From UHGV virus genome UHGV-1351772: a DNA stretch of 64,000 nucleotides; one strand, given 5' to 3'. Under the pieces are notes generated by a model. That model had not been told where the DNA came from. It searched no databases and was given only the letters and a program-made list of their open reading frames with translations. The stretch is from a virus. Both the position numbers and the translations under genes were made by a program. This document shows positions 3,681-58,422 of the stretch, piece by piece (position 1 is the stretch's first letter; each line of letters starts with the position of its first letter).

Positions 3681-3756
3681 TGGCGGGGGTGGGAAGTTTC
3701 GAACTCCCAACCTTCGGTTTTGGAGACCGCTGCACCACCAATTGTGCTACACCCCC
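3681..3756 (-). tRNA. tRNA-Trp: tRNA-Trp (anticodon CCA), 76 nt with encoded CCA end
   Basis: manual cloverleaf fold of the minus-strand sequence GGGGGTGTAGCAC...CACCCCCGCCA: 7-bp acceptor stem, D-stem GCAC/GTGC with G18G19, anticodon loop CU-CCA-AA, T-arm GGGAG-TTCGAAA-CTTCC, discriminator G. Confidence 0.85.
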
Positions 3757-27388: not shown

Positions 27389-30300
27389 TTATTTAAGTGT
27401 CGCGGGTAAATCAGGCACAGCCTCCCCATCGAGTATACGCCCGATGAGAATCCCGGCTTGTTCACCTACAGCATTCGCGGTACCGATACGTTGGATTGAA
27501 CCTACGATACGCGCATCGACGGAATCACGACCGAACAACACGTCCAGGTCATCACCATCCTCTGTTTTGTTGTCGCCGTACATGACTTCTTGTACGGTGG
27601 TTTTTAGCTGGTTAGCAATAACCATCTTATCCGCAGCGGCCATCTCAACGTCGTGTGTAATAAAGAATCGAACACAAAGTGAGTTAAAGGCCAAGGGTAC
27701 ACCTTCAACACGGTAGTCGCCGTTTACACTGCCTGAAACCGGATCACCGCGTCCGACTGCCAGTGCGGCCTTACGACGAATTCTGTCGTATTTACGCACC
27801 AGTTCAGCAAGACTTGGTGTCATGTCTTCGGTTTCACCGTGATACACCACTTCGATTTTATCCACGATACCACGTACCCCTGCACGAGGTGCGTACGAAC
27901 TTAAACTTTGCAACGTTGCGGCTGCTTCCTGACTAAAGGCACTCATATCGCCTGTCAAGTCGTCAGTAAACGTGCATAGGATTGTGTCGACGTCTACGTG
28001 GTCGCCCTCATTCACGATTTCCAAAAGCATTTGGTTGCTGTTAATCGTTACTTCTTTCAGCTTTGTTACCTGCCCCACCATTTTCTTCGCGAACCGTTCA
28101 GAAATTGCGTTGGAGTCTTCGATAACTTCTTCAGCTTCTAATAAAGCAACGGTAGCCAGCACCCCGTTTTTCCAGGAAACCTGAGTAGGATCGTAAATAT
28201 CAGGTTCAAAGTGTTGCTCGTTATACGTAATCACTGCTCCGGCCGGGAGCTTGTCACCGGCTTTCCAGCGTGTTACCAAGGTGTGCGGATAGAAGGTACC
28301 TTCGTGGGGGCCGAACCAGCGCCCTAGAGGAAAGGCTTCTTTACTTCCATCTTCGTACGTAATTTCAATGTGGTCTTTCGACAGACCAGTAATCTTACCT
28401 GCTTTATCAATAACGCGTGCATGTTTCACCGACGTACGGTGTGCGACGAATTTCTCCTGTTCAGTACGGTACGGGGTTGTGGTTGCCCCATTACAACTGG
28501 TGGCAGAACCTAACTGAATCCCAACGAAGTTTTGACGCTTTGCGTCGTCCATTAACGTATCGGGTACTAACCCGTCAATAAACGAAAGGGTATCGCTTGG
28601 TTTCGGGGTTTTCTCTTCACGTTTAAACGTAGTACCGTCAACGGTGTCAAAACGTGGGTTATTGGTGACGAAAGCAGTAATACCTACGTCGCCGTTATCT
28701 ACGGTGTTACCCGAGACTATCCCGATATCGCTGGGTTGGAACTCACGTGTGTGGTAGACCATCGTTTTACGATTACGACCACCTGTACCCCCCATCGTAA
28801 TAACGTCTTTTTCTTTAATTGACTGGATAGGGTTAGCACCTGGTGCCAAAAGTACCGACGGGTCGGAGTTAATTGCACCCCAAACCATGTCTTGCGTCAG
28901 TTCGAACTTACGGTTACTGCCCGGTGCGTTATTGTAGTTACGCATCGCTCTGACCATCGCGGTATAGATGTGGTAGGCAATCCTCTGATTTCCTAAGAAC
29001 ATCATTTCATCGCCGTTAATCTCTGGTAAAGAGTGGTCAGTTTGTAACAGTTCGTTAGAACGTTCCAGCAAGCCAATAAAGGTTTCCGGCTCACCCATTT
29101 TCCTGAGGATACGTGCGTGCATGTCGTCAACAAACGCGGACCGCATCTGTTTCAGCTCGTTGATGTACCGTGGTGTTAGGCCATCTGCATCACGTAATAA
29201 GTTCAGGTAAATGTCTTCACGGTCTGCTTCTGATTCGGTATAAGCAACCAGGTGTTTGAGATAACGATCCAAACCATGCAGAATCATCTTCTGTTGATCG
29301 TTATCGCAAGTAACTAAAAGTTTACAGTCTTGTAGTCGAATAATGCTGTCGTAGGCATTCTTATCAACACGTTGCCCTGCGGGAACCAACTCGTATTGGA
29401 TACCGAAATGTTTCAACATTCCCTGGAGTCCAAGATAGAACGAGAAGATAAAACCAAGCGACAAAGATTTACCCATCAAAGACAGCTCGGTCATTTCGCG
29501 AGGCACTTTCTGGTTATTAAAGCCCAGTACCTCTGCGATAGTTCCCACCGGTTCAACTTTGTTTCCGTTCACACCGTAAAGCATGGATTTGTCATCCATT
29601 GCCAGGATTGTTTCACTACGCGGACGTTTCGCCACCGGCAAAAGTTTGGCAGCATCGGCGTCTCTGAGTTGCTCGTCGTTAAAGAAGTTAACGGCTTCTT
29701 TGTAGTCGAAGTTCCACATATAGCCGTTCGCATTAAAGCTGGCAATACGACGCGCAATCTCCGTATACTGACGCGGCAGATGTTGCGTAGGATCGAACAC
29801 ATTTGCTAAACGTGCGTCGGTGACTTCGGTGTTTGTCGGGTCAACGGCGCGTGTGATGATCGCATTGGTTAACCAACGACCGTAGTCGTTTGCGACCTTA
29901 TCACTACGACGGACAAAGTTTTTACCGTAAGCGGTAGTCAGTGCGACAGTATCCGGTGCAACCTTACGGATCGGTAAGTCCACACGTTGCCGACGCATGG
30001 TGTATTCGACACCATTAGCGACCCAGGTACCGTCTTCGGTCAAGCCTGGGATGGAGAAGCGAACGGTTGTTGGTTCACCACCGACTGGCTGAACACGTAA
30101 AGTGTGGTGCTCGATAGTCCCTGTAACAGAAACCTCTTTTTCCACCGTGTGGTTGTGAACTGCCAGACCCAAACGTTGTGAGCTGGCGACCGCCGCCAGT
30201 ACGTCCTTCGTCATCATGGTCTGGTTGTACTGTTTCACCATCTGGTCGGTGACGTTCTCTGCCCACCCTTCATCAGTAACAAGTCGCTGAACTTTTTTCG

Positions 30301-31555
30301 GTTCGGCTTTAACGACAATATCTTTCTCGTGAACAGTCAGTGCTTCCCCGTAGGTTTCTTTCGGGTTATACGGGTTAGGTAACTGAACGAAACGTTTAGA
30401 CGATTCTGACAGGAACTGATATGCTTTAGAACTTAAGCGGCCCGCTTCAGCTAAGCGTTGTGCTTCCTGTTTAATAATCTCGTCATGCGGAATGACTTTC
30501 TCGACGACGATAGTCGTCGGTTTGACGTCTTCCTTCGGTTCTTCAATAACAACGTCTTCTTTTTCATCGAAGGTGTTATCGGATTCGACCACAGCGTCAT
30601 TAACAACGTCGTCATCATCGACAACATCAACGGTTTCTTCTTCGACGTCTTTAAGGAAAACACGCTCGTCGCCTTCAGGCGTTAGGAATTCCGCTTCGTA
30701 CGCGTTAGACGGTGCTTGTGTCATTACACGCACCAGCGTACGGTAGAACATCCTGGCCATTTGGTCGTCACTTAAACGACCGCCGGATGACTTACGCATT
30801 TTCTCTACAACACCCATGTTCATGGACGTAAAGCCCGTGTTGTGGGTGAAGATAAAGTTCATTCGTGACAGCTGAGTTAAATCCATTCCCGCGAATAAGG
30901 AATCGGATTGTTTTCCATAAGCCCAAGCAAACAACTCCAATAACCACAGCAAGTTGAAGTCCTGGAACTTCTCAATCTTACTCTTAACGCGATCGTTATA
31001 GGTTGTTTGAAACTTCTGGAACGAAGGTAGAGTCGAACCTAGTTCAATAACGAAATAGTTCTGACGCATGTATTCTTGCGTGTCGTATTTGAACTGGTTA
31101 ATCATCAACAGTTGGATGTTACGCAGTCTATCGTACCAGGCTAACTGGGTATCAGGATAGTAATAGTGCGATAGCATCGGTGTGTAGTTCTCGACCAGGA
31201 GAACTTTTAAGTCTTTGCGAACCAGATCGTCTGAGGTAAGACGACGCATCGGTCGGTTTGCACGGTGGTAAGCAAAGATAGCACGTTCTTGCCCCTGAAC
31301 AGGTTTGTTGCGCGGATGACCGCTAATACCGTCTTCCGGTAATTTAAAGTGGTGACGAACCTGTGCAGGTTTTTCTAACGGTTGAATAATCTCGAGTGTT
31401 GCAGGTGGCGCTAACACCACCTGGTCGAGATCAATGACATGGAGTACAGAACCACGTGGTATCTGTAGCTTCTCGAGCGGGATAATCCTCGGATTACCAA
31501 ACTCGTCAGTTTTACGCACCGAGAAGCGTTGGTTAAACTGTTTAATGAGCAGCAT
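27389..31555 (-). CDS. large protein (1388 aa), tentative partner subunit of a phage multisubunit RNA polymerase (beta- or beta-prime-C-like), contains an acidic low-complexity insert
   Basis: located 9 nt downstream of the beta-prime-N-like gene; weak GDK-containing stretch reminiscent of the beta subunit; otherwise unassigned. Confidence 0.55.
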   Translation of the reverse strand: MLLIKQFNQRFSVRKTDEFGNPRIIPLEKLQIPRGSVLHVIDLDQVVLAPPATLEIIQPLEKPAQVRHHFKLPEDGISGHPRNKPVQGQERAIFAYHRANRPMRRLTSDDLVRKDLKVLLVENYTPMLSHYYYPDTQLAWYDRLRNIQLLMINQFKYDTQEYMRQNYFVIELGSTLPSFQKFQTTYNDRVKSKIEKFQDFNLLWLLELFAWAYGKQSDSLFAGMDLTQLSRMNFIFTHNTGFTSMNMGVVEKMRKSSGGRLSDDQMARMFYRTLVRVMTQAPSNAYEAEFLTPEGDERVFLKDVEEETVDVVDDDDVVNDAVVESDNTFDEKEDVVIEEPKEDVKPTTIVVEKVIPHDEIIKQEAQRLAEAGRLSSKAYQFLSESSKRFVQLPNPYNPKETYGEALTVHEKDIVVKAEPKKVQRLVTDEGWAENVTDQMVKQYNQTMMTKDVLAAVASSQRLGLAVHNHTVEKEVSVTGTIEHHTLRVQPVGGEPTTVRFSIPGLTEDGTWVANGVEYTMRRQRVDLPIRKVAPDTVALTTAYGKNFVRRSDKVANDYGRWLTNAIITRAVDPTNTEVTDARLANVFDPTQHLPRQYTEIARRIASFNANGYMWNFDYKEAVNFFNDEQLRDADAAKLLPVAKRPRSETILAMDDKSMLYGVNGNKVEPVGTIAEVLGFNNQKVPREMTELSLMGKSLSLGFIFSFYLGLQGMLKHFGIQYELVPAGQRVDKNAYDSIIRLQDCKLLVTCDNDQQKMILHGLDRYLKHLVAYTESEADREDIYLNLLRDADGLTPRYINELKQMRSAFVDDMHARILRKMGEPETFIGLLERSNELLQTDHSLPEINGDEMMFLGNQRIAYHIYTAMVRAMRNYNNAPGSNRKFELTQDMVWGAINSDPSVLLAPGANPIQSIKEKDVITMGGTGGRNRKTMVYHTREFQPSDIGIVSGNTVDNGDVGITAFVTNNPRFDTVDGTTFKREEKTPKPSDTLSFIDGLVPDTLMDDAKRQNFVGIQLGSATSCNGATTTPYRTEQEKFVAHRTSVKHARVIDKAGKITGLSKDHIEITYEDGSKEAFPLGRWFGPHEGTFYPHTLVTRWKAGDKLPAGAVITYNEQHFEPDIYDPTQVSWKNGVLATVALLEAEEVIEDSNAISERFAKKMVGQVTKLKEVTINSNQMLLEIVNEGDHVDVDTILCTFTDDLTGDMSAFSQEAAATLQSLSSYAPRAGVRGIVDKIEVVYHGETEDMTPSLAELVRKYDRIRRKAALAVGRGDPVSGSVNGDYRVEGVPLAFNSLCVRFFITHDVEMAAADKMVIANQLKTTVQEVMYGDNKTEDGDDLDVLFGRDSVDARIVGSIQRIGTANAVGEQAGILIGRILDGEAVPDLPATLK

Positions 31556-31564
31556 TGCTTAGCC

Positions 31565-33184
31565 TTATGGGTTCTTTAATAACGCTTGCGTTGCACGTTT
31601 AATCACGTTGTTGATAGGATTGATTTTAAAGTTCCCATCAGAATCGAACCAGTAGTTTTTCGAGTGTATCCAGTTCCGGTTTTCCTCGAGCGCTTCCTGG
31701 GACATAGGCGCGTTAAACGACCCGGTATCGCCATCGTAGTCACCCCCTAAGCCACCTAGACGTGAAGGGTGTGGTGCCATCGACTCAACGAAGGTAGGAA
31801 CCGACCGGTCAGGGTAGCTGATAGCCCCTCGGGGTTTTTCAGTTTCCCAGTCATCTTCCAGTTCTTTTAAATATAAAGATGACGTGGTGGTCTCCAATCT
31901 TATGGTCGATGAATACGTCGAGCCTCGGCCTGTAACGGGATAACGTGTAACGAAACCGAAATAATCGTTCCAAAGTTCGTAGCCCGACAAATAAAGCAAT
32001 TCGACGAGTGTCATACCGTGGACGAATTTTCGGTCAAACGTTTTAGGAAGTTCTTCAATATCGTAGAACACCTTAAAATGTTTGGTGTCTTGGTAAACCA
32101 ACGCAACGTAGTGGGTGTCGTCCAACATAATCGGCTGATGGCGAAGCCCGCGAGCTTCCATTCGGTTGATTAAGGATTCAATCCCATCGTCGGTGGTGAA
32201 GGTGTCGTATACACGACCACCTACTTCCAAGAATTCACGTTTAAGGGTTTTGGTGTTTACGCCGTAAAGGTTGCCATCACCGGCACGGATGTTACCGAGG
32301 TAACGTTCACGTATCTGGTATTGGGCGACAGGGAGTAATGCTTTTAAACCCTGGTATAAACCAATTTTGGTGTCGGTAGGACGAATAGCGTCTTCACGAC
32401 CCATGCACTTAGACCCCGTCGAGAACGAGGACAGTACGTTACGTGTCCCGTTCATTAATTTACGAGACGTCACTTTACGACGTTGGAAACCCCCTTTACC
32501 GTCTTGGATGTTAAAGAAATACATCCAGATATCGTTGAAGGTTTGTTGCAGCTTCCAGCGTACGGGGTTAGTTAATTCAACACGGGTTGCCCGGTCAGGG
32601 ATCGCCCTGGCGAGAGATACCAACCGACGATACATCCCGCCGATTTCTTCTTCCTGTTCTCTACCATCTTGTCGAATTACTAAATCGCGTAAACCCGCGG
32701 GTAACACGAGAACGTATCGACTAAGACTAACGGGACGGAATTTCAAAAAGAAATCCACGGTTTCGTCACGTTGTAGGGACTCGTTACGCTTAGGTTTTAA
32801 ATCGTTATAGTGATTGAGGAAGAAGTTAAAACCGGTATCTGCGCCTGGGTCTCCCGGCAAGGCCGGTTCGAAATCTTTTTCTTTTTCGCTCCACGTTGCG
32901 TAGCGTTTTCCAGAACAAATTTCTTCGTAGAGTTGTTTGAGTTGGAATAACGCCAAACACACTGTCGGCGAAATGATATCGAGTTTAATATCGATATAAG
33001 AGAAAGTAGAGTCTCGCGCTTCACTCCCCGTGAGTCCAAATATCTCTGTAGAGTAAAGACCTTCGGGGTGAAAGTTTTTTGTTAACCCCTGGAAAGTATC
33101 CGTGGTCGTGACGGGTCGTAATCGCGACACAAGAGACTTGTTTACATTGAGCAGATAAAAGTCAACCCAATTAAGTTTATTCAC
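31565..33184 (-). CDS. multisubunit RNA polymerase beta-prime N-terminal fragment-like protein
   Basis: EGLYSTEIFG and IDIKLDIISPT resemble the beta-prime N-terminus (DGLFCARIFG / HIELASPTAHIWF); MYRRLV resembles DLYRRVI; C-terminal GGDYDGD matches the catalytic NADFDGD aspartate triad; GTG start with AGGAG RBS. Confidence 0.65.
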   Translation of the reverse strand: MNKLNWVDFYLLNVNKSLVSRLRPVTTTDTFQGLTKNFHPEGLYSTEIFGLTGSEARDSTFSYIDIKLDIISPTVCLALFQLKQLYEEICSGKRYATWSEKEKDFEPALPGDPGADTGFNFFLNHYNDLKPKRNESLQRDETVDFFLKFRPVSLSRYVLVLPAGLRDLVIRQDGREQEEEIGGMYRRLVSLARAIPDRATRVELTNPVRWKLQQTFNDIWMYFFNIQDGKGGFQRRKVTSRKLMNGTRNVLSSFSTGSKCMGREDAIRPTDTKIGLYQGLKALLPVAQYQIRERYLGNIRAGDGNLYGVNTKTLKREFLEVGGRVYDTFTTDDGIESLINRMEARGLRHQPIMLDDTHYVALVYQDTKHFKVFYDIEELPKTFDRKFVHGMTLVELLYLSGYELWNDYFGFVTRYPVTGRGSTYSSTIRLETTTSSLYLKELEDDWETEKPRGAISYPDRSVPTFVESMAPHPSRLGGLGGDYDGDTGSFNAPMSQEALEENRNWIHSKNYWFDSDGNFKINPINNVIKRATQALLKNP

Positions 33185-33260
33185 GCTAAATCTCCTGATA
33201 CGGATTAAACGTTATGGCTAAAAAGGTAAAGATGATTTCGATGAAATCGATCTTGATAAC

Positions 33261-36200
33261 ATGGACGACTGGGACGATTTTGATGAGCCCCCTCGTCAAC
33301 AAGACCAATCGCGTAACCCGGTCATGGACACATTTCGTGCTGCCCGTAAGTCGGCGTTGTCGACTATCTGGCCCGAAAACAAACGTGATCAGGTTATTTT
33401 AAAAGGGATGCCTAAACCTGCGGCAGAAGCCTACGAAGGCTATCAAAACGTTAAAGCTGCAGGTCAAGACATTCTGGCCCATACGAAAGACGAGATTGAA
33501 AAGACGTCTCGCGTCGTCAAGATGCAAGCGAGACAGTTAGGTCCAACACTGAAACGGTATTTACCGGAATCCGTAACACGGAAAATCGACAAGTGGGCAC
33601 GTAACGATCAAATCGACTATGGGAATTACGATCCTAAACAAGCGATGATGGATCGTGAGCTGGACAGCGTGTTCTCAGGCGCACCGCAAACAGCGGACCA
33701 GCAACGTGAGGCGCAAGAGGGGATGGTTGAAGACCGCTTGCGCGACACGATTAAGGACATGAAGTCCGACGCACTGTTCCAGACCGTAATCGGTATTGCA
33801 AAAGACGTCAACTTAACGACTAGCCTAAGTCGTGGCGTGTTGTTGAATGTTCAGCGTAAGCAGTTAGAGCTGCAATATCGGACGCTGTTTGCTTTGCAGG
33901 ATATTGCGAAACTCAAACAAGACGAGTTTGCACGCAACACCCCGGCATTAGAAGCCATCGTTAAGAACACGGCACTACCCGACTACGCGAAGGAAGAGTT
34001 TTCTGAAATTCGTTGGGCTAATGTAAAACGTAAAGCTGCGGAGTGGATGAACCCCTTACACTACGCAGATAATTTCATTGGCCAGATTCGCGAAAACGCG
34101 AAGAAGAAAATCTCGAACATCTTTAGTGATGGTCGTGGGATTCTAGAACAAGTTCTAGGGATGGCTCAGGAAGATGACTTTGACATGTCGGACAGCTCAT
34201 CGTTGTCTCCTGACCGTCGTAACACAAACTCGCGTAATAAAGCGGCAGGTTTTGCAGGTGGTTGGTTAGCAAAACGTCTCTTACAACCCCAGATCGAACG
34301 ACTTCAGAACTGGACGCGTGGCGAGCTAGAGAAAAACCCAGAAGTCATGAAACGCCTACAGTTGGCGAAGTATGGCTTTGGAAATTTGTCGTCTATTTCT
34401 AACTCGGCAATAGCGGGAGAAACAAGCGGTCCGTTAGCTGATCTGTTTCGACTAATGCACGATTTGGGACTAGTTAACCCGCTACGTCGCGAAACCTTAG
34501 CATTAGACGATCGTTCTGCGGAATCTCTTTCTGCGGCGGCGAAGTTCGATCGTAAAGCTTACCTTAGTATCACAGAAGTTATTCCGACGTTACTGTCCGA
34601 GATTAACAAATCTATTCGTCGTGGGTATGGCGAACACCACGATCAGGTTTATGACCTGACCACGCGCGGTATGGTGGATCGCAAAGTTATTGGTAATCGT
34701 GTACGTAAGGCCGTTGCTAATGACGATCAGCGCAAACGTTTACAGACGTACATCAACGACACTGTCGACTTTATCGATAAAGATAAAACGCTCGATAGGA
34801 AAACACGTCAAGCGTTAGCGGACTACATCGAGTCTCGTGCCTCGGAAGGGAAAGCGTTCGATGTAGGGTCTTTATTGAAAGACCCGATGCACATGTATCG
34901 ATACATGAACGCAAACGCTGTGGAAGCGATTCAGGGTGTTTTAGAAGCCCGTTCTGCGGAACTGGTTGGCGGACACCATGAACTGAGTAATGCGATTTCA
35001 AACAAAATCGCCGCTATCCAGTCAACGATTCGTGCACGTCAAGACACGGTTGATGCTGCGTCTGTGATTTACGGCGAGAACGCACTTCGTGATTCCGGTA
35101 TTTTTAAATACGATGCGAAGAAAGACATTTTCGAGGTCGATAAGGACATTAACGATCCCTATACGTTATTTAATGACCTGTCGATGGGTAAGACCCGCTC
35201 TGGACGTTCGTTAACCCGTGAGCAAGAGATTCAGCGTAAATTGCAAAACGGTTCTGCGCTGGGTGATTACTTGCGACGGATGGGTGCAGGCGCAGAGCCG
35301 AGCTTTGAAGACAAAGAACTGTCCAATGTACGTGGCGGTGGAAAAGGAGGTCGTGGTCGCGGTTTAAGCGCACGCCAACTCGCTGCGGTACTTTATGGAG
35401 AGAAATCCACTAACTTTGTTGAACTGTTAAGCAGTCGTCCAGACACGAACGCCGGGTTGGAACAGCAATTCGACCGTTTGATTGATGCTGTACGTAAACA
35501 GCCCGAATCTAGCACAGTGCAAGATATCCTCAAACACGTTAAGAACATGGATGAGGAAGGTATTCTCCTAGCCAGTTTAGGCGGTAGTCGTGATGACGGT
35601 GACGAATCTGAAAGTTCGAGTGACTCGGGTCGTAAACGTCGTCGTAAACGCAAACGTATTGTGCTAGGCGAGACAGGCTTGTTACGCCGTTGGGCTGGGG
35701 TGCTTTGGGATACCGGTTCAGGTGTAGGGCGGTTTGGTAAGAATCTGTTCCTACGTGGGAAAGATCGTCTGCAGGCTTTAGGTGGTTTTATCCGTGGGAA
35801 ATTCTCAGGCGGCTCCTCCGAAGGACCCGGTGTATTTAGCCGACTGAAAGGGTTAGTAACAGGTACTCTATCGACAGGTTGGAATTCTGCTGTAGCTTTC
35901 GGTAAAGGCGTTTTAGGTGTTCGTGATATTTACGATGAACGTGGCAACGTCGTATTACAAGGAAGTCGTTTAGAAGCTGGGGAATATTACCAGGCTGACC
36001 CGAAAACTGAGAAGCTGATTCAACTTAAAACCCTCGACGATATTAAACTGGGACGTGATATTGTCGATGAAGCGGGTAATTTAATCTTAGCTGCTGCTGA
36101 TTTGGCTGCCGCAGGTAAACTGCGTTTCTACAAAGGTGGTAAAGTTCAAGCGCTTTTCCAGTACATTTCTGGGAAAGCAGGAACGGCGGTAAACAAAGCT

Positions 36201-39200
36201 GTGACTTTACCGAAGAAACTTTTAGGCTTCATTTCACCTAAAGCGGCTTCGTTGTTCGAGAAAGCACGTGAGTGGCTAAATGAGGTTCCAGAGGGCGCAG
36301 AGAAAACCCGTTTACAAAGCATGATTTCCCGTGTAACGGGAATGCCAGCGCGTTTGTGGAACAATGCAAAACGCGGGTTTGAGAAGCTCAAAGAGTTGGC
36401 TTCTGATAACCCTCTGACACGTTGGTGGCAGAACCGTAAGGAAGGGGGTTCTGGTGGTGGGTTTAGTGTGTTCTCATGGTCGAACGGCCGTAAAACTAAC
36501 CACATCTTAATCCGTATCTACAAACTCCTTAACCGGAGATTGCCAGGTGAACCAGAAGATGATACCTGGACAGAACAGATGGAGCGGAATACGGGAGCCA
36601 GTTCAGTTAAAGGATTATTCCAACGTGCTAAAGACATACGCGATGGGTTCCGTGAACATTTTCAGGGGTTCCGGGATTGGCGCGGTCGGATGCGTGACAG
36701 AATGTCCCGTTATCGCGGTGCGGTAGGCGATCGTCTTTCTCGTTGGGGCGGTACCGCACGTGGTTGGTTTGATCGTTTCCGTGGCCGTGCAAGCGATATG
36801 GTCGATACTTTCCGCGATCCGCGTTACGATATCGGCACACGTTATCGAATGGAGAGTCGTTTAGCAGGACGCGATGACGATGTTGCTGAGTTTTATCGTC
36901 AACACATCTACGCAAGAGGTAAGGTGTCTAAAACACGTATCATCGATGCGGCAAAAGAAGACTTAGACACCGTAACGGATAGCGCTGGACGTGTGATTAA
37001 TAAAGGGAAACAGAAAGCCCGTAGCGTTGGGTCAGCTTTACTGGAACGCCTGAACCGAATGGTTAATCTTCAGGAAATGTCATGGTTTAACACCATGCGT
37101 GATTCTGCGGAAAAAGCAGGTGCTTCGGATGGTTTGTTAAGAACTATGTTCAGTAAGTTCGGCCAACGCAATAAACCGCCTGCCAGTGATGAAAAACGTG
37201 ATTACTTCCAGTTCTTCCGACGCCGTCGTCGTTCTAAGGAAGAGGAAAAGGCTAAGAAAGAAGCCGAGAAGAAAGGTGGTAAGCGCGGGGTGATGGATTT
37301 CCTTAAAGGACTGCCGTTGGTAGGACCGATTGTGAGTATTTTAGGCACAGTAGGTTCAATCTTAGGTAAAGTCGCGAAATGGGGAATCTTTAAGCCGGTT
37401 GGGTTTGCAGGCAAAGCGTTGTGGAACGTTGGTAAGTTTGCTGTGACTCGTTTGGCTGTCCCTGCGGTGAGTGCTGTCGCGACGGCAGCATCTGCAGTGG
37501 TAACTGCGGTTGGCTGGCCGATTATCGGTTTGGTCGCTGCAGGCGCTGCGCTATCTTGGTTTGCATATAAAACTGCAACCCGTGTGAATGCTCAGTATTT
37601 GGATAACATGCGATTGGCACAGTACGGATTTAGAGATCACGATGAGTGGTCTTCCGACGATGGCGCAAAAGCACGTTATTTAGAAGACAACTTGAAACCG
37701 TACATCTCTTATACAGAGAATGGCCAAGCACAGTTGCGTGGTTTGTCCGGTGACGACGTGAAGAAACTGGCCGAAGGGTTTGGTACTAACGTAGAAGACA
37801 AAGGCGAAATGCTGGCGTTTAGTGCGTTTATGCTACAACGTTTTGTGCCGATCTATTTACGTTGGATTACGGCACTGAAATCCATGGATAATGATATCGC
37901 GTTAGCAGATGTCGGTAATCCTGCGAAAGTGTCGAAGGCAGACATGTTGAATATCTTCAACAAAATGAAGATGTCGAAAGATGCGCCTGCATTCCGTGCA
38001 TTAGAAGATCCCCGCAAGGTTAACCAAGGTTGGTTCTCTAAAGCGTGGGATTTCGTAACGTTTACCCCGGCCGAGTTTTTGTCAGGCGAAGAAGTCGTTG
38101 AAGCGCAAGAACGCGTGCTTCGTTCGATTAACATGCGTCGTGATGAAAAACGTAAGGATGTAAATGCTACAGGCGGTGTGGCCGAAGGACACAAAGTTGC
38201 TTCTGTGGCAGAATCGACCCAAGCGTTGGCTCAAGCGGATGCGGAACGCAACAAAGAAGTTGCGAAAGTCGAAGGTTGGGAAGACGGCACCGAACAAGTT
38301 CAGGTTCAAGTCGACTGGAGAAGCTTACCTAAAGAAACCGATCTCCGTGATTTGGAGTCCGTAAGGTTGAAAGCTTATGGTGCGGTGAGTATTACTCAAA
38401 CAACCCGTAACCTCTATACGCTCTTGGAACGTCAAGTGTTGCAAGACACCGATGTGAAAAGCTGTACGTATAAAGGCGACTGGAAACGTGCGATTGCGGT
38501 GATTGCGCCTGACGCCATTGGTGGGCCAAAAGAAGATCGGTACAAGAACTGGTTCTATAACCGCTTCTTACCTGTCTTCATGACGTACGTGGTTGGGGTG
38601 AAACGTTATGTCCCTGCTGCCGATCCGATGGACCTACGCGTTACGGGTGGGTTCTTGTATGAAATCGCACTGATGATGCGTGGTGCATACAACCTGAAAG
38701 GGGGTATTCGTCAGTCAGTGTGGGAGGTACCGTTTAACCCGTTAGGGGGAGACGCTAACACCGACGCCGGTTCAGTTGCAACGGAGTTAGAGAACCTGAA
38801 AGAACTGTCTAAGGAAGCTGATTTGGCAGTACGTAAAACGCTGCGTGCTACGCCTTCTGCGGGTTTCCGTGTGAACTGGCAGCGAAAAGATCGCGCGACT
38901 CAGATGTTCTTGACCGACGATGAGAAGGAGCAACCGTCTCGACCACAGATGAACACCTCCTCCTCTTATCGTGACCTATTGCAACCAGCGGCAAACGACG
39001 GTGGGAATTACGGCACACCAAACGATTTGGCCGGTGCTTACGGTCAGATGGGAGCTAAGAATTACGCTGCATTTACTACCGGTAACTTCGGCGTGAAACT
39101 TGGCGATATGCAAGACGGTGACTATAAAACGTTAGCGGCTAAGTATCCAATTTCAACGTTGGGTGACGGATTGAAGCCTAACTTGAATGCGGTTGCAGCA

Positions 39201-40337
39201 CTGATTACAGACGTAGCGAAGATGATGGGTGTTCCTCCAGCGTTAGCACTGGGAATGGCACAAGCAGAATCTGGGCTTAGATACGGTATCAAAGCTAAAG
39301 GAAGTTCTGCGGCTGGCTTGTTCCAGTTCATCAACGATACCTGGGGTGCGCAGATGAAAGCTTATGCGAGACGTTATGGTATCCCGCAAACCAACCAGTA
39401 TGACCCGTGGGCGAATGCTCTGCTTGGCGTCCGTCATATTCGTGATAATATCGAGAAAGCCAGAAAGGATTTAGGTGGTATCGATCCTCCAGGTGCAGCT
39501 GTTTACCTCTACCACTTCTTAGGACAAGGTGGCGGTAAGAAATTCCTGCAAGAATGGAAGCGTGATCCGAACGGGCCATCGTCGCGTGGTGCGTCGGCCG
39601 ATCAAATCGCGGCAAACAGCACAATTTTCTACAAGAATGGAAAATTGCGTAGTTTGGATGAAGTGCTCAACATCATGGGTGGTAAGATTGGTGCTGTAGG
39701 AACAAACGCGATCGCGGCTAACCAGGCATCGCTGAAAGACTTGACGACAGGCGTAACACCAATGCCGTCTTCCCCGGCTATCGCTGCAGGCGCTGCTAAC
39801 GATCCGTCTATCACAGGCCCGGCAGATAACCTGCCAGCCGCGAACGAGGCGAATCGCGACTCCGCTTTAGCAGACAAAGGCGCGATGGGTGCTGAAGATA
39901 TTAAAGCTGCAACTGGTGGTGGTCCGGCTGTGCCGAGTCCTGGCGGCGATGTCACGCCGAGCGATGCGTCAGTTGTTGTAGAGACGGTGGGTCAAAATGC
40001 ACGTGCTGATGGCCTGGCCGAAGAAGAGGTTGCTAAAGTAAAAGAAGGTGCTAGACAGCAGATGGAGAAATCGGCCCGTCCTGCACCAACGGTAACTTCC
40101 GATGCTCAGAGCGGTTCTACAGTGAACAGTGGTGATCCGATCAGTGTACAACAGCTGGCGGTTGCAAAAGAGTCTGCAGGCTATCTGAAAGAGATTGTAA
40201 CAATTCTTCGCCAGCGGCCACAGGCTATGCAAAACGGTCCGGCTAACCCGGCGTCAACCGCTCCGGGTTCGGCGTCACGTAACGTGTCAATAACTCAACC
40301 CGCGCCGCAACTCGACGTTAGTCGTAAATCAGCGTAA
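33261..40337 (+). CDS. giant virion-associated protein (2358 aa) with C-terminal soluble lytic transglycosylase domain; tape-measure/ejection-protein-like
   Basis: SLT motif GMAQAESGLRYGIKAKGSSAAGLFQFINDTWG near residue 2000; long hydrophobic block near residues 1340-1430; poly-basic tracts (RKRRRKRKR). Confidence 0.8.
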   Translation: MDDWDDFDEPPRQQDQSRNPVMDTFRAARKSALSTIWPENKRDQVILKGMPKPAAEAYEGYQNVKAAGQDILAHTKDEIEKTSRVVKMQARQLGPTLKRYLPESVTRKIDKWARNDQIDYGNYDPKQAMMDRELDSVFSGAPQTADQQREAQEGMVEDRLRDTIKDMKSDALFQTVIGIAKDVNLTTSLSRGVLLNVQRKQLELQYRTLFALQDIAKLKQDEFARNTPALEAIVKNTALPDYAKEEFSEIRWANVKRKAAEWMNPLHYADNFIGQIRENAKKKISNIFSDGRGILEQVLGMAQEDDFDMSDSSSLSPDRRNTNSRNKAAGFAGGWLAKRLLQPQIERLQNWTRGELEKNPEVMKRLQLAKYGFGNLSSISNSAIAGETSGPLADLFRLMHDLGLVNPLRRETLALDDRSAESLSAAAKFDRKAYLSITEVIPTLLSEINKSIRRGYGEHHDQVYDLTTRGMVDRKVIGNRVRKAVANDDQRKRLQTYINDTVDFIDKDKTLDRKTRQALADYIESRASEGKAFDVGSLLKDPMHMYRYMNANAVEAIQGVLEARSAELVGGHHELSNAISNKIAAIQSTIRARQDTVDAASVIYGENALRDSGIFKYDAKKDIFEVDKDINDPYTLFNDLSMGKTRSGRSLTREQEIQRKLQNGSALGDYLRRMGAGAEPSFEDKELSNVRGGGKGGRGRGLSARQLAAVLYGEKSTNFVELLSSRPDTNAGLEQQFDRLIDAVRKQPESSTVQDILKHVKNMDEEGILLASLGGSRDDGDESESSSDSGRKRRRKRKRIVLGETGLLRRWAGVLWDTGSGVGRFGKNLFLRGKDRLQALGGFIRGKFSGGSSEGPGVFSRLKGLVTGTLSTGWNSAVAFGKGVLGVRDIYDERGNVVLQGSRLEAGEYYQADPKTEKLIQLKTLDDIKLGRDIVDEAGNLILAAADLAAAGKLRFYKGGKVQALFQYISGKAGTAVNKAVTLPKKLLGFISPKAASLFEKAREWLNEVPEGAEKTRLQSMISRVTGMPARLWNNAKRGFEKLKELASDNPLTRWWQNRKEGGSGGGFSVFSWSNGRKTNHILIRIYKLLNRRLPGEPEDDTWTEQMERNTGASSVKGLFQRAKDIRDGFREHFQGFRDWRGRMRDRMSRYRGAVGDRLSRWGGTARGWFDRFRGRASDMVDTFRDPRYDIGTRYRMESRLAGRDDDVAEFYRQHIYARGKVSKTRIIDAAKEDLDTVTDSAGRVINKGKQKARSVGSALLERLNRMVNLQEMSWFNTMRDSAEKAGASDGLLRTMFSKFGQRNKPPASDEKRDYFQFFRRRRRSKEEEKAKKEAEKKGGKRGVMDFLKGLPLVGPIVSILGTVGSILGKVAKWGIFKPVGFAGKALWNVGKFAVTRLAVPAVSAVATAASAVVTAVGWPIIGLVAAGAALSWFAYKTATRVNAQYLDNMRLAQYGFRDHDEWSSDDGAKARYLEDNLKPYISYTENGQAQLRGLSGDDVKKLAEGFGTNVEDKGEMLAFSAFMLQRFVPIYLRWITALKSMDNDIALADVGNPAKVSKADMLNIFNKMKMSKDAPAFRALEDPRKVNQGWFSKAWDFVTFTPAEFLSGEEVVEAQERVLRSINMRRDEKRKDVNATGGVAEGHKVASVAESTQALAQADAERNKEVAKVEGWEDGTEQVQVQVDWRSLPKETDLRDLESVRLKAYGAVSITQTTRNLYTLLERQVLQDTDVKSCTYKGDWKRAIAVIAPDAIGGPKEDRYKNWFYNRFLPVFMTYVVGVKRYVPAADPMDLRVTGGFLYEIALMMRGAYNLKGGIRQSVWEVPFNPLGGDANTDAGSVATELENLKELSKEADLAVRKTLRATPSAGFRVNWQRKDRATQMFLTDDEKEQPSRPQMNTSSSYRDLLQPAANDGGNYGTPNDLAGAYGQMGAKNYAAFTTGNFGVKLGDMQDGDYKTLAAKYPISTLGDGLKPNLNAVAALITDVAKMMGVPPALALGMAQAESGLRYGIKAKGSSAAGLFQFINDTWGAQMKAYARRYGIPQTNQYDPWANALLGVRHIRDNIEKARKDLGGIDPPGAAVYLYHFLGQGGGKKFLQEWKRDPNGPSSRGASADQIAANSTIFYKNGKLRSLDEVLNIMGGKIGAVGTNAIAANQASLKDLTTGVTPMPSSPAIAAGAANDPSITGPADNLPAANEANRDSALADKGAMGAEDIKAATGGGPAVPSPGGDVTPSDASVVVETVGQNARADGLAEEEVAKVKEGARQQMEKSARPAPTVTSDAQSGSTVNSGDPISVQQLAVAKESAGYLKEIVTILRQRPQAMQNGPANPASTAPGSASRNVSITQPAPQLDVSRKSA

Positions 40338-40384: not shown

Positions 40385-42556
40385 GTGGACGCTAGATCAG
40401 CTAACGACTCAAGCTGGGTCAGAAATCTATTTAAGGGAGAGTTGGAAGGCCGAGATGAACGTTTTCTGGCCTTGCGACGCTACTCTAACGGTATGATGTC
40501 TTTTGAAGATACGACCATGGGCGGTAGCAAAGCGATTAATAGCCCTCCACAGTTTACGTGGTTTGCAGACCCCCCATCAACAGGGGCATTTGCACGACCC
40601 GGTAATCGTGAAGCGGAGAAAAAGGCGTTGGCTAACGGTATGCCAACCTCTTCTTATCGCTTAGGGACGTATTATTACGAAAGCATTAACCAAAATTCGT
40701 TTTACGTACATTGTCGCTTCGGCAAGCCGAAATATCTGGGAATGGCCGCATTCTTTGCGAATATGTACGATTCCAACTTAGCGTATTTAGCGCGTACGGG
40801 CGATTATCCGGGAATGATCCGCACGATAGCAAGTTATATCGGTGCGGCAGCGATATGGGCCACTGTAGGCACTGTCGCTTTTGCGGTAATTTTAATTACT
40901 CCTCGCATTCTCGCAGCAGCGTTGAATAAACAAACGTCGCGTTACTATTACGTTAAACCGACGATGCATCTGTATTTGCGTGCTGTACAGAACATCTTGA
41001 ATACGCAGCTTGTTTATCGTCGTTTGGTTCCCACGGGTATCTTAGGTACCTTCCAGGTTAGTCAAGACGGCGATGGAAAAGGGAACAAAAAAGCACGTGA
41101 TGATGCTTTTGAAGCGTTGCCGGAGGTTTGGAAAAAAGACGGTGAATTCGATGTCTTTAAGATGATCAACCGTTATCAAACCCTGGCGAACTATCAGAAT
41201 CAACGTTTAAAAGAACTTCGTAAGCAGTCCTCAAGTGACGATGATTTCGCCGAGCGGATACGAAATTTCTATTTGGACAGCACATATGGTGCGGCTTCGT
41301 ATTCTGACGATGTGAGAAATTACGAAGTTTCTTTGCAAGACATGGAGCGGTTAGCTGCATCCGAGCGCGGTGGCTATGCGGCGAAAGACGCGTCGGGCAA
41401 AGATATTAATAGTGTTGATGAACTGGAAAAAGGGGTTCTCGATGCGTTTAGTTCCGGGCTACAAACTGGGGGAACGGCAAGCGACCTAGAGGCGCAGGCG
41501 GCAGAAATCCAAAACAAAATGAACGAGGATTTGGAAAATGCCGATGCGAGTAACCTCACCGAGGGACAACAGATTACGATACAGTCCTGGGCGGATAAAG
41601 GTAAAGAATCGACTATGGAGACGTTCTTCGGCGACTTTGTTAAAGTGGTTGGCGAACAGATTGAAGGGATTAAAGCACAGGCGCTGTCCGAAATCTACAA
41701 CGGTTCTCAGTGGGTAACCTGGAGAATCGATGGGAAGGACACCGTCTCTCGTTCGTTCTCTAACTCTACAAAAGAGCCGGAGATCTCTAGCACAGTTAAC
41801 TCAATGACAGCGAAAGCTCGTCAACTTGAAGTAAACTTGTCCGGCGGGCAAACCGGCTTCAACGCGGTCGATTCATTAATTACGGGCTTTAAGTCCGTAA
41901 TGCGTGGGTTAGCAGATACGTTGCATCTAACGGGGATTATGTCGTTATATAATTCATCCGTCATTGACTTCCCAGAGGTGTGGGACAGTTCAGATGCCTC
42001 GGGCGATGATATTAACTTGACAATACCTTTACGTGCATGGTCTGGAAGTGACCTGGATATCTTCCAGGAAATTCTAGTGCCACTATCCTTTTGGATCGCC
42101 GCAGTATGTCCAATTGCGACAGGTAAACAATCGTTCACTCATCCGTTTTATCTGGAGTGTTACTCGCAAGGTCGATTCTCGTTCCGTAATGCTATCGTAA
42201 CATCTTTGTCTTTACAATTCGGTGTGGGTGGTTTAGGTTGGCGACCAGGTGATTCTGTTCCACTGTCTTGTGATATCAATGTTACCATCCGTGATTTGTC
42301 GCGTGTGATGTATATGCCCATCGTTACAGACACAGGTGTTTGGGACGACGATAATAAATTCAGTGAGTTTATGGCGTGTTTGGGTGCAGCGACGTTGTAC
42401 GAACGTACGAACGGTATAGAGCGTGCCAAGATCCAAGGAAGCATTTGGGCGCAGAACTGGGCATCTGCGTGGTCACAGGGCAGTTTTATTAACTCTGCGT
42501 TTGATGTGCTTCCAGCACGCCAGATCGCGAACATCTTCTTGCCGCAAGCACGTTAA
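40385..42556 (+). CDS. hypothetical protein (723 aa) with one transmembrane-like segment, probably virion/ejection-associated
   Basis: follows the giant SLT protein on the same strand; hydrophobic segment IGAAAIWATVGTVAFAVILI. Confidence 0.6.
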   Translation: MDARSANDSSWVRNLFKGELEGRDERFLALRRYSNGMMSFEDTTMGGSKAINSPPQFTWFADPPSTGAFARPGNREAEKKALANGMPTSSYRLGTYYYESINQNSFYVHCRFGKPKYLGMAAFFANMYDSNLAYLARTGDYPGMIRTIASYIGAAAIWATVGTVAFAVILITPRILAAALNKQTSRYYYVKPTMHLYLRAVQNILNTQLVYRRLVPTGILGTFQVSQDGDGKGNKKARDDAFEALPEVWKKDGEFDVFKMINRYQTLANYQNQRLKELRKQSSSDDDFAERIRNFYLDSTYGAASYSDDVRNYEVSLQDMERLAASERGGYAAKDASGKDINSVDELEKGVLDAFSSGLQTGGTASDLEAQAAEIQNKMNEDLENADASNLTEGQQITIQSWADKGKESTMETFFGDFVKVVGEQIEGIKAQALSEIYNGSQWVTWRIDGKDTVSRSFSNSTKEPEISSTVNSMTAKARQLEVNLSGGQTGFNAVDSLITGFKSVMRGLADTLHLTGIMSLYNSSVIDFPEVWDSSDASGDDINLTIPLRAWSGSDLDIFQEILVPLSFWIAAVCPIATGKQSFTHPFYLECYSQGRFSFRNAIVTSLSLQFGVGGLGWRPGDSVPLSCDINVTIRDLSRVMYMPIVTDTGVWDDDNKFSEFMACLGAATLYERTNGIERAKIQGSIWAQNWASAWSQGSFINSAFDVLPARQIANIFLPQAR

Positions 42557-42572: not shown

Positions 42573-43136
42573 ATGGCTAATACGCTATTAGGTAAATCAG
42601 GAAAACAACTGGTTTATGAGTTATTAGTAAAAAAGAATCCTGGTTTGGTAGAGAAAGGTATTACAATCGATAAGTTGAATTTTGGTACACCGTCACATAT
42701 TCCTGCGGTAGAAACACCAGAAACCCAATTTACACGATTAAATACCCAACTTAGCGTCCAGGGAATTATTGAACAGAAAACGTTTGGTAAAATCGACGTT
42801 ATTTATCGTCGATTGGATTTAGAGCACCTCTTAGGTGACTTTGTAGTTTCTGTTGCGGGTGTTAATGCGGCTACGGTATCTGAGGTACTACAGCTTTTCC
42901 GCAATAAGTACAATTTACAGATTACCGACGATGAAGTTGAGAACCCAACAGCTGCACCAGACAGCAAAGATAAAACCATCATTATCATGAATGGGACATC
43001 TTTGGCATGGACAGGGCGGCTGGAAGTGTACTTAACAGAGCTGCCGTCCGACGGTAAGGATATTTCGAAGTTGATTAAAGTCACTGAACTTGACGGTTTG
43101 ACGTATATCTCTTCTGGGATTGTTCCAGGCGCTTAA
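42573..43136 (+). CDS. hypothetical protein (187 aa)
   Basis: six-frame ORF with GAGG RBS; followed by terminator. Confidence 0.55.
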   Translation: MANTLLGKSGKQLVYELLVKKNPGLVEKGITIDKLNFGTPSHIPAVETPETQFTRLNTQLSVQGIIEQKTFGKIDVIYRRLDLEHLLGDFVVSVAGVNAATVSEVLQLFRNKYNLQITDDEVENPTAAPDSKDKTIIIMNGTSLAWTGRLEVYLTELPSDGKDISKLIKVTELDGLTYISSGIVPGA

Positions 43137-45258: not shown

Positions 45259-46293
45259 TTAGACAGCTATGGGAGCTTTAATTGTGTCGTGCGATTGATA
45301 TCCAACCAATTCGAAGTCTTCGAATTTGTAATCGAAGATGGAATCAGGTTTACGTTTGATAACCAGTTTAGGTAGCGGGTAAGGTTCGCGAGTAAGTTGA
45401 AGTTTTGCCTGCTCCAGATGGTTAGAGTAAAGATGAACATCTACGCCACTATAAACCAACTCGTCTGGAACCATATTGAGTTGTTGAGCAATCATGTGAG
45501 TTAACAACGCGTAAGAAGCGACGTTAAACGGTGCGCCAAGTAGGTAATCGTTGCTCCGCATCATGTAAAAACACGAAAGTTTACGACGAGGGATACCTTC
45601 ACGATCTAAGGTTTCATGAAGTCGTTCTTCGTTATCGATATCTTCGTGGTTAATAAGCGGTGCGTTCGCAAACTTTTCCGGTTCGTTTACTTCGTACCAA
45701 TCCAGTCGTTCAAGCAACGTCATTTCTGTTGTGTAAAATTGGAAATAGTTGTGACATGGATTGAGTGCCATATCGTCCAGGTCACCTACATTCCAGGCAC
45801 TAACGATAATACGGCGGGAGTCAGGGTCTTCACGAAGTTGTTGGATAACTTTACTGATCTGGTCATGTGCTTTTTCATAAACCAAATACGTCGTACTATC
45901 TTCCTTCATATTCCCGATATACTTGTAACCCCGCTGCATTAGTTGTTGTGTACGTCTTACGTCATGACACTCCACAACTTTACAGTCGCGCCATTCCCGC
46001 CACTGGTGTCCGTAGACAGGACCTAAATTCCCTTCTTCATTCGCCCAAGCATCCCAGATTTTTACCCCGTTCTCTTGCAGGTACTTCACGTTAGTGTCAC
46101 CGTTTAAGAACCACAATAGTTCATGAATGATACTTTTCAGGTGAACCTTTTTCGTAGTAACTAATGGGAAACCTTCTTTCAGGTCAAAACGTAGTTGACG
46201 ACCAAATACAGAAAGTGTCCCTACACCTGTGCGGTCTTTCTTGACAACACCGTTATCCAGAATGTCTTGCATTAACGCTAAATACTGTTTCAT
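45259..46293 (-). CDS. thyA: thymidylate synthase family protein (ThyA-like, with two in-frame insertions)
   Basis: N- and C-termini align closely with E. coli ThyA from memory (MKQYL..DRTG.GTLS.FG ... PCH ... RSxD..LG.PFN.ASYALL ... IKRKP.SIFDY.FEDFE..GY); catalytic Cys in NPCH retained. Confidence 0.9.
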
Positions 46294-57497: not shown

Positions 57498-58397
57498 TTA
57501 TTTCCCACGATAAAATCCAGAAATGTAACTCGGCGCTATCCATCGCCATTCGCGCCAGCGCATTTCTGACATCTTACCACACCATACACGCTTCCAATGC
57601 GCACGACGGATATGTGCGGCGCAATAAATCGCCAAACAAACCTCGTGTCCTTCCTTGCGTTGCTGTTCTATATCTTCCCATTGTACCGGACTTACATCTA
57701 AAACGACTGCTTCACTACGTGGGCGAATCTCTGTATCGGGAACATAACGAATGGTCCTTCCGCGAAATTCTTTCTTCTCACGTTCAGTACGTTTAATTCG
57801 TGACGAAAGGTATAGTCCGATATAGACAGCGTCGAGTAGTCGTTGATTCTCCTTAACCGAAATAAGGAGCGGCTTTAGCTCGACGAAATCATCTTTACTT
57901 TTATCGATTTTGTAAATCTCAAACTCCATGTATACCGATTCTTCACGTTCTTCGCATGACATCACAAAGAGAACTTCTTCGCCTTCGTAAAGACGTCTTC
58001 CGATAAATAACGTGATTGGACTTTCGTCGAGATTTACAGTAACCGAGAAAGTAAATGAAGGGATGGTTTCTATCCAGAAGTACGGGATGTTTTTTAGTCT
58101 CTCAGTTTTTGCTAAGAGTGCCATCAGTTCTTCATCCGAGATGATTTCAACAGCAGCGTATTGCCATCCTAGTCCCAGGGACTGCTTAATCAGTCTGGGA
58201 ATCTGTTCGGTAACGCCATACTCTCGATAGGTCGGATCTTTAACTGGCATAAACGTTACGGGTATTTGACGTTTATGCTCGTTAATGAACCGAATAAAGC
58301 GGCACTGATCTAATCCGTGAATTGTTTGGTGTGCCTTTTCTATTTGTTCGCTCATGCGTCTTAGCGCTTTCCCGTAAAGTCTATTATTCGTTGTCAT
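57498..58397 (-). CDS. hypothetical protein sharing a C-terminal AAHIRRAHW module with the upstream gene; possible tyrosine-recombinase-like fold
   Basis: C-terminal CAAHIRRAHWKRVW...W...Y; start ATG 58397 with AGGAG RBS (ORF extends to 58553). Confidence 0.55.
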   Translation of the reverse strand: MTTNNRLYGKALRRMSEQIEKAHQTIHGLDQCRFIRFINEHKRQIPVTFMPVKDPTYREYGVTEQIPRLIKQSLGLGWQYAAVEIISDEELMALLAKTERLKNIPYFWIETIPSFTFSVTVNLDESPITLFIGRRLYEGEEVLFVMSCEEREESVYMEFEIYKIDKSKDDFVELKPLLISVKENQRLLDAVYIGLYLSSRIKRTEREKKEFRGRTIRYVPDTEIRPRSEAVVLDVSPVQWEDIEQQRKEGHEVCLAIYCAAHIRRAHWKRVWCGKMSEMRWREWRWIAPSYISGFYRGK

Positions 58398-58422
58398 TTT
58401 AATACTCCTAAACACTTTTAGC

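Follow-up and report, generated by a model that had tools for sequence, protein, structure and literature searches.

A probable tail tape measure protein with a wall-cutting domain and a predicted membrane-inserting segment in an SPN3US-like jumbo phage genome

Introduction

The giant protein considered here is encoded at positions 33261-40337 (+) of the window, by which the whole analysed stretch of 64,000 nucleotides of the virus genome UHGV-1351772 is meant; its closest described counterparts are gp239 of phage SPN3US and, at greater distance, gp181 of phage phiKZ. [quoted passage not shown] Tailless particles lack it or contain it at a level reduced more than 10-fold, and it falls into one group with the sheath and tube proteins (PMC5105663, PMC10052503), this location in the virion tail being derived from mass spectrometry of the SPN3US orthologue only. 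The orf181 gene of phiKZ received zero transposon insertions across 6714 bp and is essential, and its product is regarded as a tail protein which contains a lysozyme and is likely to be the tape measure (PMC12676376). According to the part of a review that relays Briers 2008, the gp181 catalytic domain is muralytic, with 60,000 U/mg, and brings about lysis of permeabilised Pseudomonas; the enzyme type is left there as "lysozyme or lytic transglycosylase" (PMC5380687).

Less closely related systems offer partial parallels. T7 gp16 likewise carries an SLT-type domain on a very large envelope-bridging protein, whereas it is stored in the head core, has its SLT domain at the N-terminus and shows no homology to the present protein outside that domain. 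Among siphophages, multifunctional tape measure proteins (TMPs) were reportedly described by Boulanger in 2008 and by Piuri and Hatfull in 2006. The TMPs of this kind (T5 pb2 and those of TM4, phiIPLA35 and TP901-1) unite in one protein a ruler, segments of hydrophobic or fusogenic character and a muralytic motif and are the first to leave the tail (PMC6116005, PMC5380687). In contrast to the protein described here, they belong to non-contractile tails and use other enzyme types; the window protein is two to three times longer, and neither detectable homology nor a match to their Pfam or TIGRFAM models was found. The endolysin/lytic transglycosylase gp144 of phiKZ (PDB 3BKH) has 260 amino acids with an N-terminal peptidoglycan-binding domain, while the SLT domain of the window protein is the C-terminal module of a 2358-amino acid chain. 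In the virion, gp144 is wedged at the neck between the whisker collar and the sheath (PMC13250141).

From the comparisons given below, the window gene most probably encodes the tail tape measure protein of a jumbo phage of the SPN3US/phiKZ type, equipped with a wall-cutting domain and a membrane-inserting segment. Orthology, synteny, domain architecture, conservation of the catalytic residues and the lysozyme-like fold were computed here; the location in virion and tail, essentiality and muralytic activity are taken from experiments on relatives.

Family Identity and Gene Order

The gene is a single open reading frame (ORF) of 2358 codons, which begins with ATG and is closed by TAA; its length and its hundreds of homologues show that it is real and not a chance ORF. 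Over its entire length the protein matches PHROG 3201 (E=0), and it is 60% identical to SPN3US gp239 (SPN3US_0239) in a full-length alignment of 2386 columns. With the phiKZ-type gp181 of phage PA7, BLASTP aligns an N-terminal part (residues 1-534 with PA7 residues 28-576, E=7e-17) and a C-terminal part (residues 1447-2239, E=2e-33). Judged by these alignments, the protein is orthologous to SPN3US gp239 over its full length and more remotely homologous to phiKZ gp181; it is thus a diverged new member of an experimentally known family, the nearest characterised relative being 60% identical. By tblastn, 260 phage records are matched, 61 of which cover at least 80% of the query and are all jumbo phages of about 225-250 kb from Erwinia, Salmonella and Escherichia, the remoter matches being phiKZ-like phages. 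Public assemblies contain copies with 99, 96, 87 and 79% identity. At the nucleotide level, megablast against phages returned just patches of 62-140 nt, so that a protein-level search was required.

The likeness to SPN3US gp239 extends to the order of the parts, which in both proteins comprises a helical N-terminus, a K-RRRI motif, an EKRDYF.FF motif with basic residues, a hydrophobic block, two helical domains, the SLT domain and a low-complexity tail. Two details differ, GGGKRRRI of gp239 standing against a poly-basic run of nine residues in the window protein, and KRWRE against RRRRR. With phiKZ gp181 (2237 amino acids), the N-terminal stretch of about 530 residues, the C-terminal stretch of about 800 residues (domains A and B and SLT) and synteny are shared. 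The phiKZ-type proteins, however, are only about 24% identical, their middle portion of about 900 residues cannot be aligned, both basic motifs are missing and a weak Gly/Ala-rich hydrophobic stretch takes the place of the strong block.

The first-pass annotation, made from the letters alone, had noted adjoining genes resembling RNA polymerase and had pointed to a similar arrangement in phiKZ, and both observations are borne out. Divergently to the gene lie two virion RNA polymerase (vRNAP) beta-subunit fragments, one in the position of SPN3US gp240 (31565-33184, minus strand; PHROG 2986, E=6e-233) and one in the position of gp241 (27389-31555, minus strand; PHROG 3148, E=0). Downstream follow a 723-amino acid homologue of phiKZ gp182 (40385-42556, plus strand; BLASTP against the gp182 equivalent of PA7, E=3e-35 and 2e-22) and a DUF7941 virion structural protein in the position of SPN3US gp237 (42573-43136, plus strand; Pfam PF25613, E=2e-23; PHROG 2935). 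In phiKZ, gp182 is the spacer of the baseplate, a hexameric ring that separates tube initiator and hub (PMC13250141). The order of two vRNAP beta genes, the tape measure gene, a gp182-like gene and a DUF7941 gene is identical in Erwinia phage Asesino, SPN3US and the phiKZ-like PA7; in SPN3US, the flanks are gp240/gp241 on one side and gp238/gp237 on the other. The family position between divergent vRNAP beta genes and a gp182-type spacer gene is hence kept here. The remainder of the window also matches the SPN3US map, with genes for the large terminase, sheath, prohead protease and vRNAP as well as for MazG, thymidylate synthase, a UvsX-like and an RNase H-like protein.

Members of this family are widely labelled "tail fiber protein", as is the case for SPN3US_0239, Asesino gp261 and PHROG 3201. 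Were the GenBank and PHROG 3201 annotation "putative tail fiber protein" taken at face value, the product would be a fiber or receptor-binding protein, a notion that can for practical purposes be dismissed. Neither Pfam nor NCBIfam detects a fiber-type domain in it; an internal transmembrane-like block, a muralytic domain and a helical architecture are unlike fibers, and the experimental papers on SPN3US speak of a tape measure. The fibers of phiKZ, moreover, are gp131-family paralogues (PMC13250141). The fiber label is a propagated mis-annotation without support, and tape measure or virion-associated lysin is the apt designation.

The Wall-Cutting Domain

The lytic transglycosylase (SLT, lysozyme-like) domain spans residues 1922-2160 (39024-39740, plus strand). 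Pfam SLT (PF01464) covers residues 1983-2069; its score of 29.9 bits exceeds the curated threshold (21.3 bits), which bears out the domain annotation that the first reading of the sequence had proposed from two motifs near residue 2000 of the 2358-amino acid ORF. These motifs, AESGLRY from residue 2002 and AGLFQF from residue 2018, correspond to an E-S motif followed by a G-L-x-Q motif. The predicted fold is lysozyme-like and matches that of gp144, whose residues E115 and Y197 align with E2003 (codon GAA, 39267-39269) and Y2082.

Conservation was counted in a full-length alignment of 80 sequences. The glutamate aligned with gp144 E115, whose lack of conservation in an alignment with SLT domains would, according to the first-pass annotation, have refuted its reading of the protein, is kept in 75 of the 80 homologues, the serine following it in 76 and the tyrosine equivalent to gp144 Y197 in 79. 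Four of the five sequences without the glutamate have a GH19 domain (PF00182) at that position, and the fifth is the divergent P0077. E2003 is proposed as the catalytic acid of the SLT domain, by which glycan strands would be cleaved. No second SLT domain was found in the window by tblastn.

Among the relatives, the C-terminal enzyme varies between SLT, a GH19 chitinase-type domain, a VanY carboxypeptidase together with SLT, and an M23 peptidase. The proteins in which it is swapped (P0041, P0042, P0044, P0045, P0091, P0119 and others) keep both the scaffold and a spacing of about 561 residues between the hydrophobic block and the enzyme. The occurrence of varied enzymes in the same C-terminal region indicates that the scaffold bears an exchangeable wall-degrading cassette.

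The Hydrophobic Block and the Basic Tracts

About 90 residues of transmembrane-like sequence had been noticed upstream of the SLT motifs in the first-pass annotation; by hydropathy and comparison with homologues, they are now delimited as a block of 98 amino acids (residues 1343-1440; 37287-37580, plus strand). Kyte-Doolittle windows of 19 amino acids reach values of at least 1.5 at residues 1343-1372 and 1398-1435, and the block is composed of an uncharged stretch of 20 amino acids, a Lys-rich amphipathic connector and a second uncharged stretch of 39 amino acids. Of 120 homologues, 114 possess a hydrophobic block, which starts from a median position of 0.59 of the protein length (interquartile range (IQR) 0.577-0.612). 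In the same set, the catalytic glutamate follows the end of the block at a nearly constant distance, with a median of 561 amino acids (IQR 550-569), while the part upstream of the block ranges from 941 to 1897 residues. A glycine zipper within the block was considered and dropped, the small-xxx-small motifs of this type numbering 10 against 12.5 expected from composition and hence not being enriched.

The basic runs that had likewise been remarked upon are located at residues 791-799 (RKRRRKRKR) and 1320-1333 (RRRRRSKEEEKAKK). The first of them, poly-basic tract 1 (35631-35657, plus strand), is an expanded form of a conserved K-RRRI core and is followed by the motif [VI]LGE.GL.RRWGGVL. Poly-basic tract 2 (37191-37232, plus strand) lies in the conserved motif EKRDYFQFFRRRRR at residues 1311-1324, in which residues 1320-1324 are the basic run, and ends 19 residues before the hydrophobic block. 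In the alignment, the basic tracts are not free-floating low complexity, both being embedded in conserved motifs. Only the SPN3US-like clade has these motifs, which can be followed there down to about 35% identity; phiKZ-type proteins lack them. Net charge amounts to about +5 over residues 1-800, +47 over residues 801-1400 and about 0 over the remainder.

Tail Location and Ruler Function

The first-pass annotation had offered a tape measure or an ejection protein. The former stands, given the 60% identity to gp239, whereas a head-packaged ejection protein does not agree with the behaviour of the SPN3US orthologue as a tail protein. In that case, the protein would be stored in the capsid in the manner of the T7 pilot protein gp16 and would build a channel across the envelope, with the SLT domain opening the wall. 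Heads of the SPN3US type do hold many ejection proteins (PMC7411985), and a huge protein with membrane segments is reminiscent of an ejectosome. The depletion of gp239 from tailless heads argues against it, however, as do the baseplate protein encoded by the adjacent gene and the C-terminal position of the SLT domain, which is N-terminal in gp16; this alternative is therefore very improbable.

Within the tail, a different place was originally envisaged for phiKZ gp181, which reviews have listed both as a "needle-like cell-puncturing device" and as a putative trimer (PMC5380687). A central baseplate needle like T4 gp5, which also has a lysozyme domain, is hardly credible any more. The atlas of phiKZ assigns the spike to gp164, its tip to gp163.1, the hub to gp101 and the spacer to gp182 (PMC13250141), gp181 being found at none of these positions, by which the needle is effectively refuted for phiKZ. 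In addition, the models of the window protein contain neither an OB-fold nor a beta-helix, the N-terminus being about 66% helical and the C-terminus helical as well.

In the tape measure assignment, the N-terminal portion of about 1340 residues would lie extended and mostly helical in the lumen of the tail tube, where it would set or match tube length; at about 1.5 Å per residue, this portion would span about 200 nm. The lumen of tail tubes is generally electronegative, and the strongly basic middle region of the protein would suit such a lumen. Once 16 probably missing N-terminal residues are restored (see below), 1358 residues precede the block, corresponding to about 204 nm at 1.5 Å per residue. 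The gp181 of phiKZ type from PA7 has about 1290 residues before its hydrophobic stretch, or about 194 nm, to be set against the measured phiKZ tail length of 2000 Å (PMC13250141). This agreement of residue count and tail length is a numerical consistency only. Across the family, total length correlates with the length upstream of the block (r=0.73).

Several points weigh against this assignment. No tape measure model is matched in Pfam (four segments searched at E≤10) or NCBIfam (E≤1), and nothing beyond SLT was returned; TMP families being many and unrelated in sequence, the missing match is weak negative evidence. The frameshifted pair of tail assembly chaperone genes that precedes the tape measure gene in tail modules of the lambda/P2 type is lacking upstream, where the neighbours are the vRNAP genes on the opposite strand, the baseplate gene of gp182 type lying downstream. 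T4-like myophages are likewise not known to have the chaperone pair arrangement. At 1.5 Å per residue the entire protein would measure about 350 nm, far above a tail of about 200 nm, so that at most about 57% of it can be ruler. The model of the N-terminal part is of low confidence, with a predicted local distance difference test (pLDDT) score of 56. In the phiKZ-type protein of PA7, the hydrophobic block is much weaker, and membrane insertion may therefore not be family-wide. Tail-length genetics are absent, for any member of the family, from the literature that was found. Finally, no structure locates the protein: neither the phiKZ atlas nor the Goslar preprint mentions it, and gp181 is not among the ordered chains of the 2026 atlas (PMC13250141). 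Such an absence from symmetrised maps would be expected for a symmetry-mismatched protein of the tube lumen; as it stands, an essential protein of about 260 kDa has no virion position in the published structures found.

Part of these points would equally be accommodated if the protein were virion-associated in the tail or baseplate and served penetration alone, by degradation of peptidoglycan and membrane insertion, tail length being set by another factor. The protein has about 1.7 times the length that would be required of a ruler for a tail of about 200 nm, TMP sequence families do not match it, and the term "tape measure" was assigned in the SPN3US and phiKZ papers from size, location and analogy and not from length genetics. 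On the other hand, neither for SPN3US nor for phiKZ has another TMP candidate been described, the first 1340 or so residues are rich in long helices and fit the tail in length at the rise given above, the gene is situated directly upstream of that for the protein of the tube-baseplate junction, and total length correlates with the length of the part upstream of the block. A penetration protein without ruler function is accordingly judged quite unlikely.

Proposed Mechanism of Envelope Penetration

For the tape measure protein with its wall-cutting and membrane-inserting parts, the following course of events may be envisaged; ruler function, location in the lumen, order of exit, membrane insertion and the role of the basic tracts are inferred. 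The C-terminal portion of about 1000 residues would constitute a penetration cassette at the baseplate end of the tail, above the spacer ring of gp182 type. Contraction of the sheath would push the tube and spike across the outer membrane, upon which the TMP would be expelled with its C-terminus first. This cassette-first exit is modelled on T5 pb2 and other multifunctional TMPs (PMC6116005, PMC5380687). The SLT domain would then cut the glycan strands locally, with E2003 as catalytic acid, and the block at residues 1343-1440, flanked by the RRRRR motif, would enter the inner membrane to serve as an anchor or as a DNA conduit.

Phages of the Chimalliviridae type deliver their DNA into a membrane-bound early-infection (EPI) vesicle, and by cryo-electron tomography the phiKZ tube is seen attached to this vesicle. 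It might be speculated, with a probability that we would call rather low, that in the SPN3US clade the block and its basic flank weld the contracted tube to the inner membrane and/or seed the EPI vesicle, the spacer of about 561 residues acting as a periplasmic ruler. The spacer, consisting of domains A and B and a linker, would in that event keep the wall-cutting cassette at the peptidoglycan while the block resides in the inner membrane. In a literature search, no paper linking gp181 or gp239 to the EPI vesicle was found.

The window gene would thus be the expected tape measure/penetration protein of an SPN3US-like jumbo phage, of which close public copies exist. What the family comparison brings out is a fixed C-terminal cassette, in which the block, two family-specific helical domains and an exchangeable enzyme follow one another at near-constant spacing. 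This cassette provides a concrete handle on how jumbo phages cross the periplasm to the inner membrane or the EPI vesicle.

Probable True Start of the Gene

The nearest relatives possess 16 additional N-terminal residues, MAKKGKDDFDEIDLDN, ahead of the residue equivalent to Met1 of the window protein; this N-terminus is carried by P0001 and P0008, for instance. In a DNA alignment, the A-run at 33220-33224 reads AAAAA in the window versus AAAAAA both in Asesino and in L003, a metagenomic contig that is 99% identical (Logan ERR3941247). The short run brings a TAA into frame and deprives the called ORF of its 16 conserved N-terminal residues, whereas insertion of one A yields an ORF of 2374 amino acids from position 33214. 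The called ORF is therefore probably 16 codons short, and the start at 33261 would be an artefact of a one-base homopolymer indel; the probable true 5' end with the 16 conserved codons, at present out of frame, occupies 33214-33260 (plus strand). The indel itself is likely a homopolymer error of sequencing or assembly, or else a real mutation or frameshift. With a start at 33214, the divergent spacer to the vRNAP beta gene (33185-33213) has 29 nt, the same as in Asesino. A spacer of only 29 nt implies that the promoter of at least one of the two divergent genes lies inside coding sequence or far upstream.

Further Regions of the Protein

The called ORF (33261-40337, plus strand; PHROG 3201), the orthologue of SPN3US gp239 and phiKZ gp181 with its muralytic domain, can be divided further with the aid of an AlphaFold2 model. 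All regions in this section are encoded on the plus strand. Residues 1-1200 are predicted to be 66% helical with helices of 40-67 residues, albeit at the low confidence given above. Within this part, the conserved N-terminal region (residues 1-670; 33261-35270), which corresponds to the BLASTP match with PA7, is predicted to be 73% alpha-helix in long helices. It contains the most conserved block of the protein according to the conservation profile, residues 201-250 (33861-34010; QLELQYRTLFALQD...TPALEAIVKNTALPDYAKEEF), whose mean identity of 72% among homologues less than 70% identical overall exceeds the conservation of the catalytic domain; K235-E245 (KNTALPDYAKE) is invariant in the alignment.

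There follows a poorly conserved linker of low confidence (residues 671-806; 35271-35678), as seen from pLDDT values below 50 over residues 676-887 and from the alignment block 755-830, which ends in an acidic/Ser-rich stretch and then in poly-basic tract 1. The middle of the protein (residues 807-1342; 35679-37286) is basic, rich in Gly, Trp and Arg and, in the model, mostly helical. It includes a small beta-hairpin module (residues 888-955; 35922-36125; pLDDT 71-81) with the motif LEAGEYYQ...DIVDEAGN, which is conserved in relatives. A regex search found one copy of this motif per protein and no second one. In relatives of about 2450 amino acids, the alignment consensus suggests an extra segment of about 90 residues with a similar pattern just downstream of the hairpin, and by eye patterns like the hairpin motif recur in phiKZ-type gp181. 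The module may be a length-adjusting unit. Self-BLAST of the protein revealed no internal repeats, and aromatic residues are not clearly spaced at the 11-residue period that has been reported for some TMPs.

Residues 1436-2160, comprising domain A, domain B, a linker and the SLT domain, are predicted confidently (mean pLDDT 78). Helical domain A, which is highly conserved, extends over residues 1441-1630 (37581-38150), with 56% mean identity over residues 1451-1500, and helical domain B over residues 1685-1863 (38313-38849). No solved structural counterpart was found for either. An exhaustive HMMER search with residues 1436-1921 gave 340 representative clusters, essentially all of them proteins of 2000-3300 amino acids that are matched in the corresponding part of their length. 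By this search, the two domains are specific to the gp181/gp239 family. Domain B is connected to the SLT domain by a disordered, poorly conserved linker (residues 1864-1921; 38850-39023; pLDDT 34-46, conservation 0.16-0.20). Behind the SLT domain, an Ala/Pro/Gly-rich low-complexity tail (39741-40334), recognised from the sequence and by comparison with P0008 and PA7 gp181, closes with a helix, QQLAVAKESAGYLKEIVTILR, and the extreme C-terminus, ITQPAPQLDVSRKSA, both of which are conserved.

Neighbouring Observations

The thymidylate synthase gene of the window (45259-46293, minus strand) is uninterrupted, whereas in L003 (22574-22806, minus strand) it contains a group I intron of about 270 nt (Rfam RF00028, 62.2 bits), which amounts to a presence/absence polymorphism between near-identical phages. 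Divergence of the thymidylate synthase exons is higher near the site of intron insertion. A single tRNA-Trp (CCA) at 3681-3756 (minus strand) is the only Rfam or ARAGORN match in the window. Two overlapping ORF calls, 57498-58553 and 58423-59349 (both minus strand), belong to PHROG 6160 (unknown function), which suggests tandem paralogues, the start of the upstream one probably having been mis-called.

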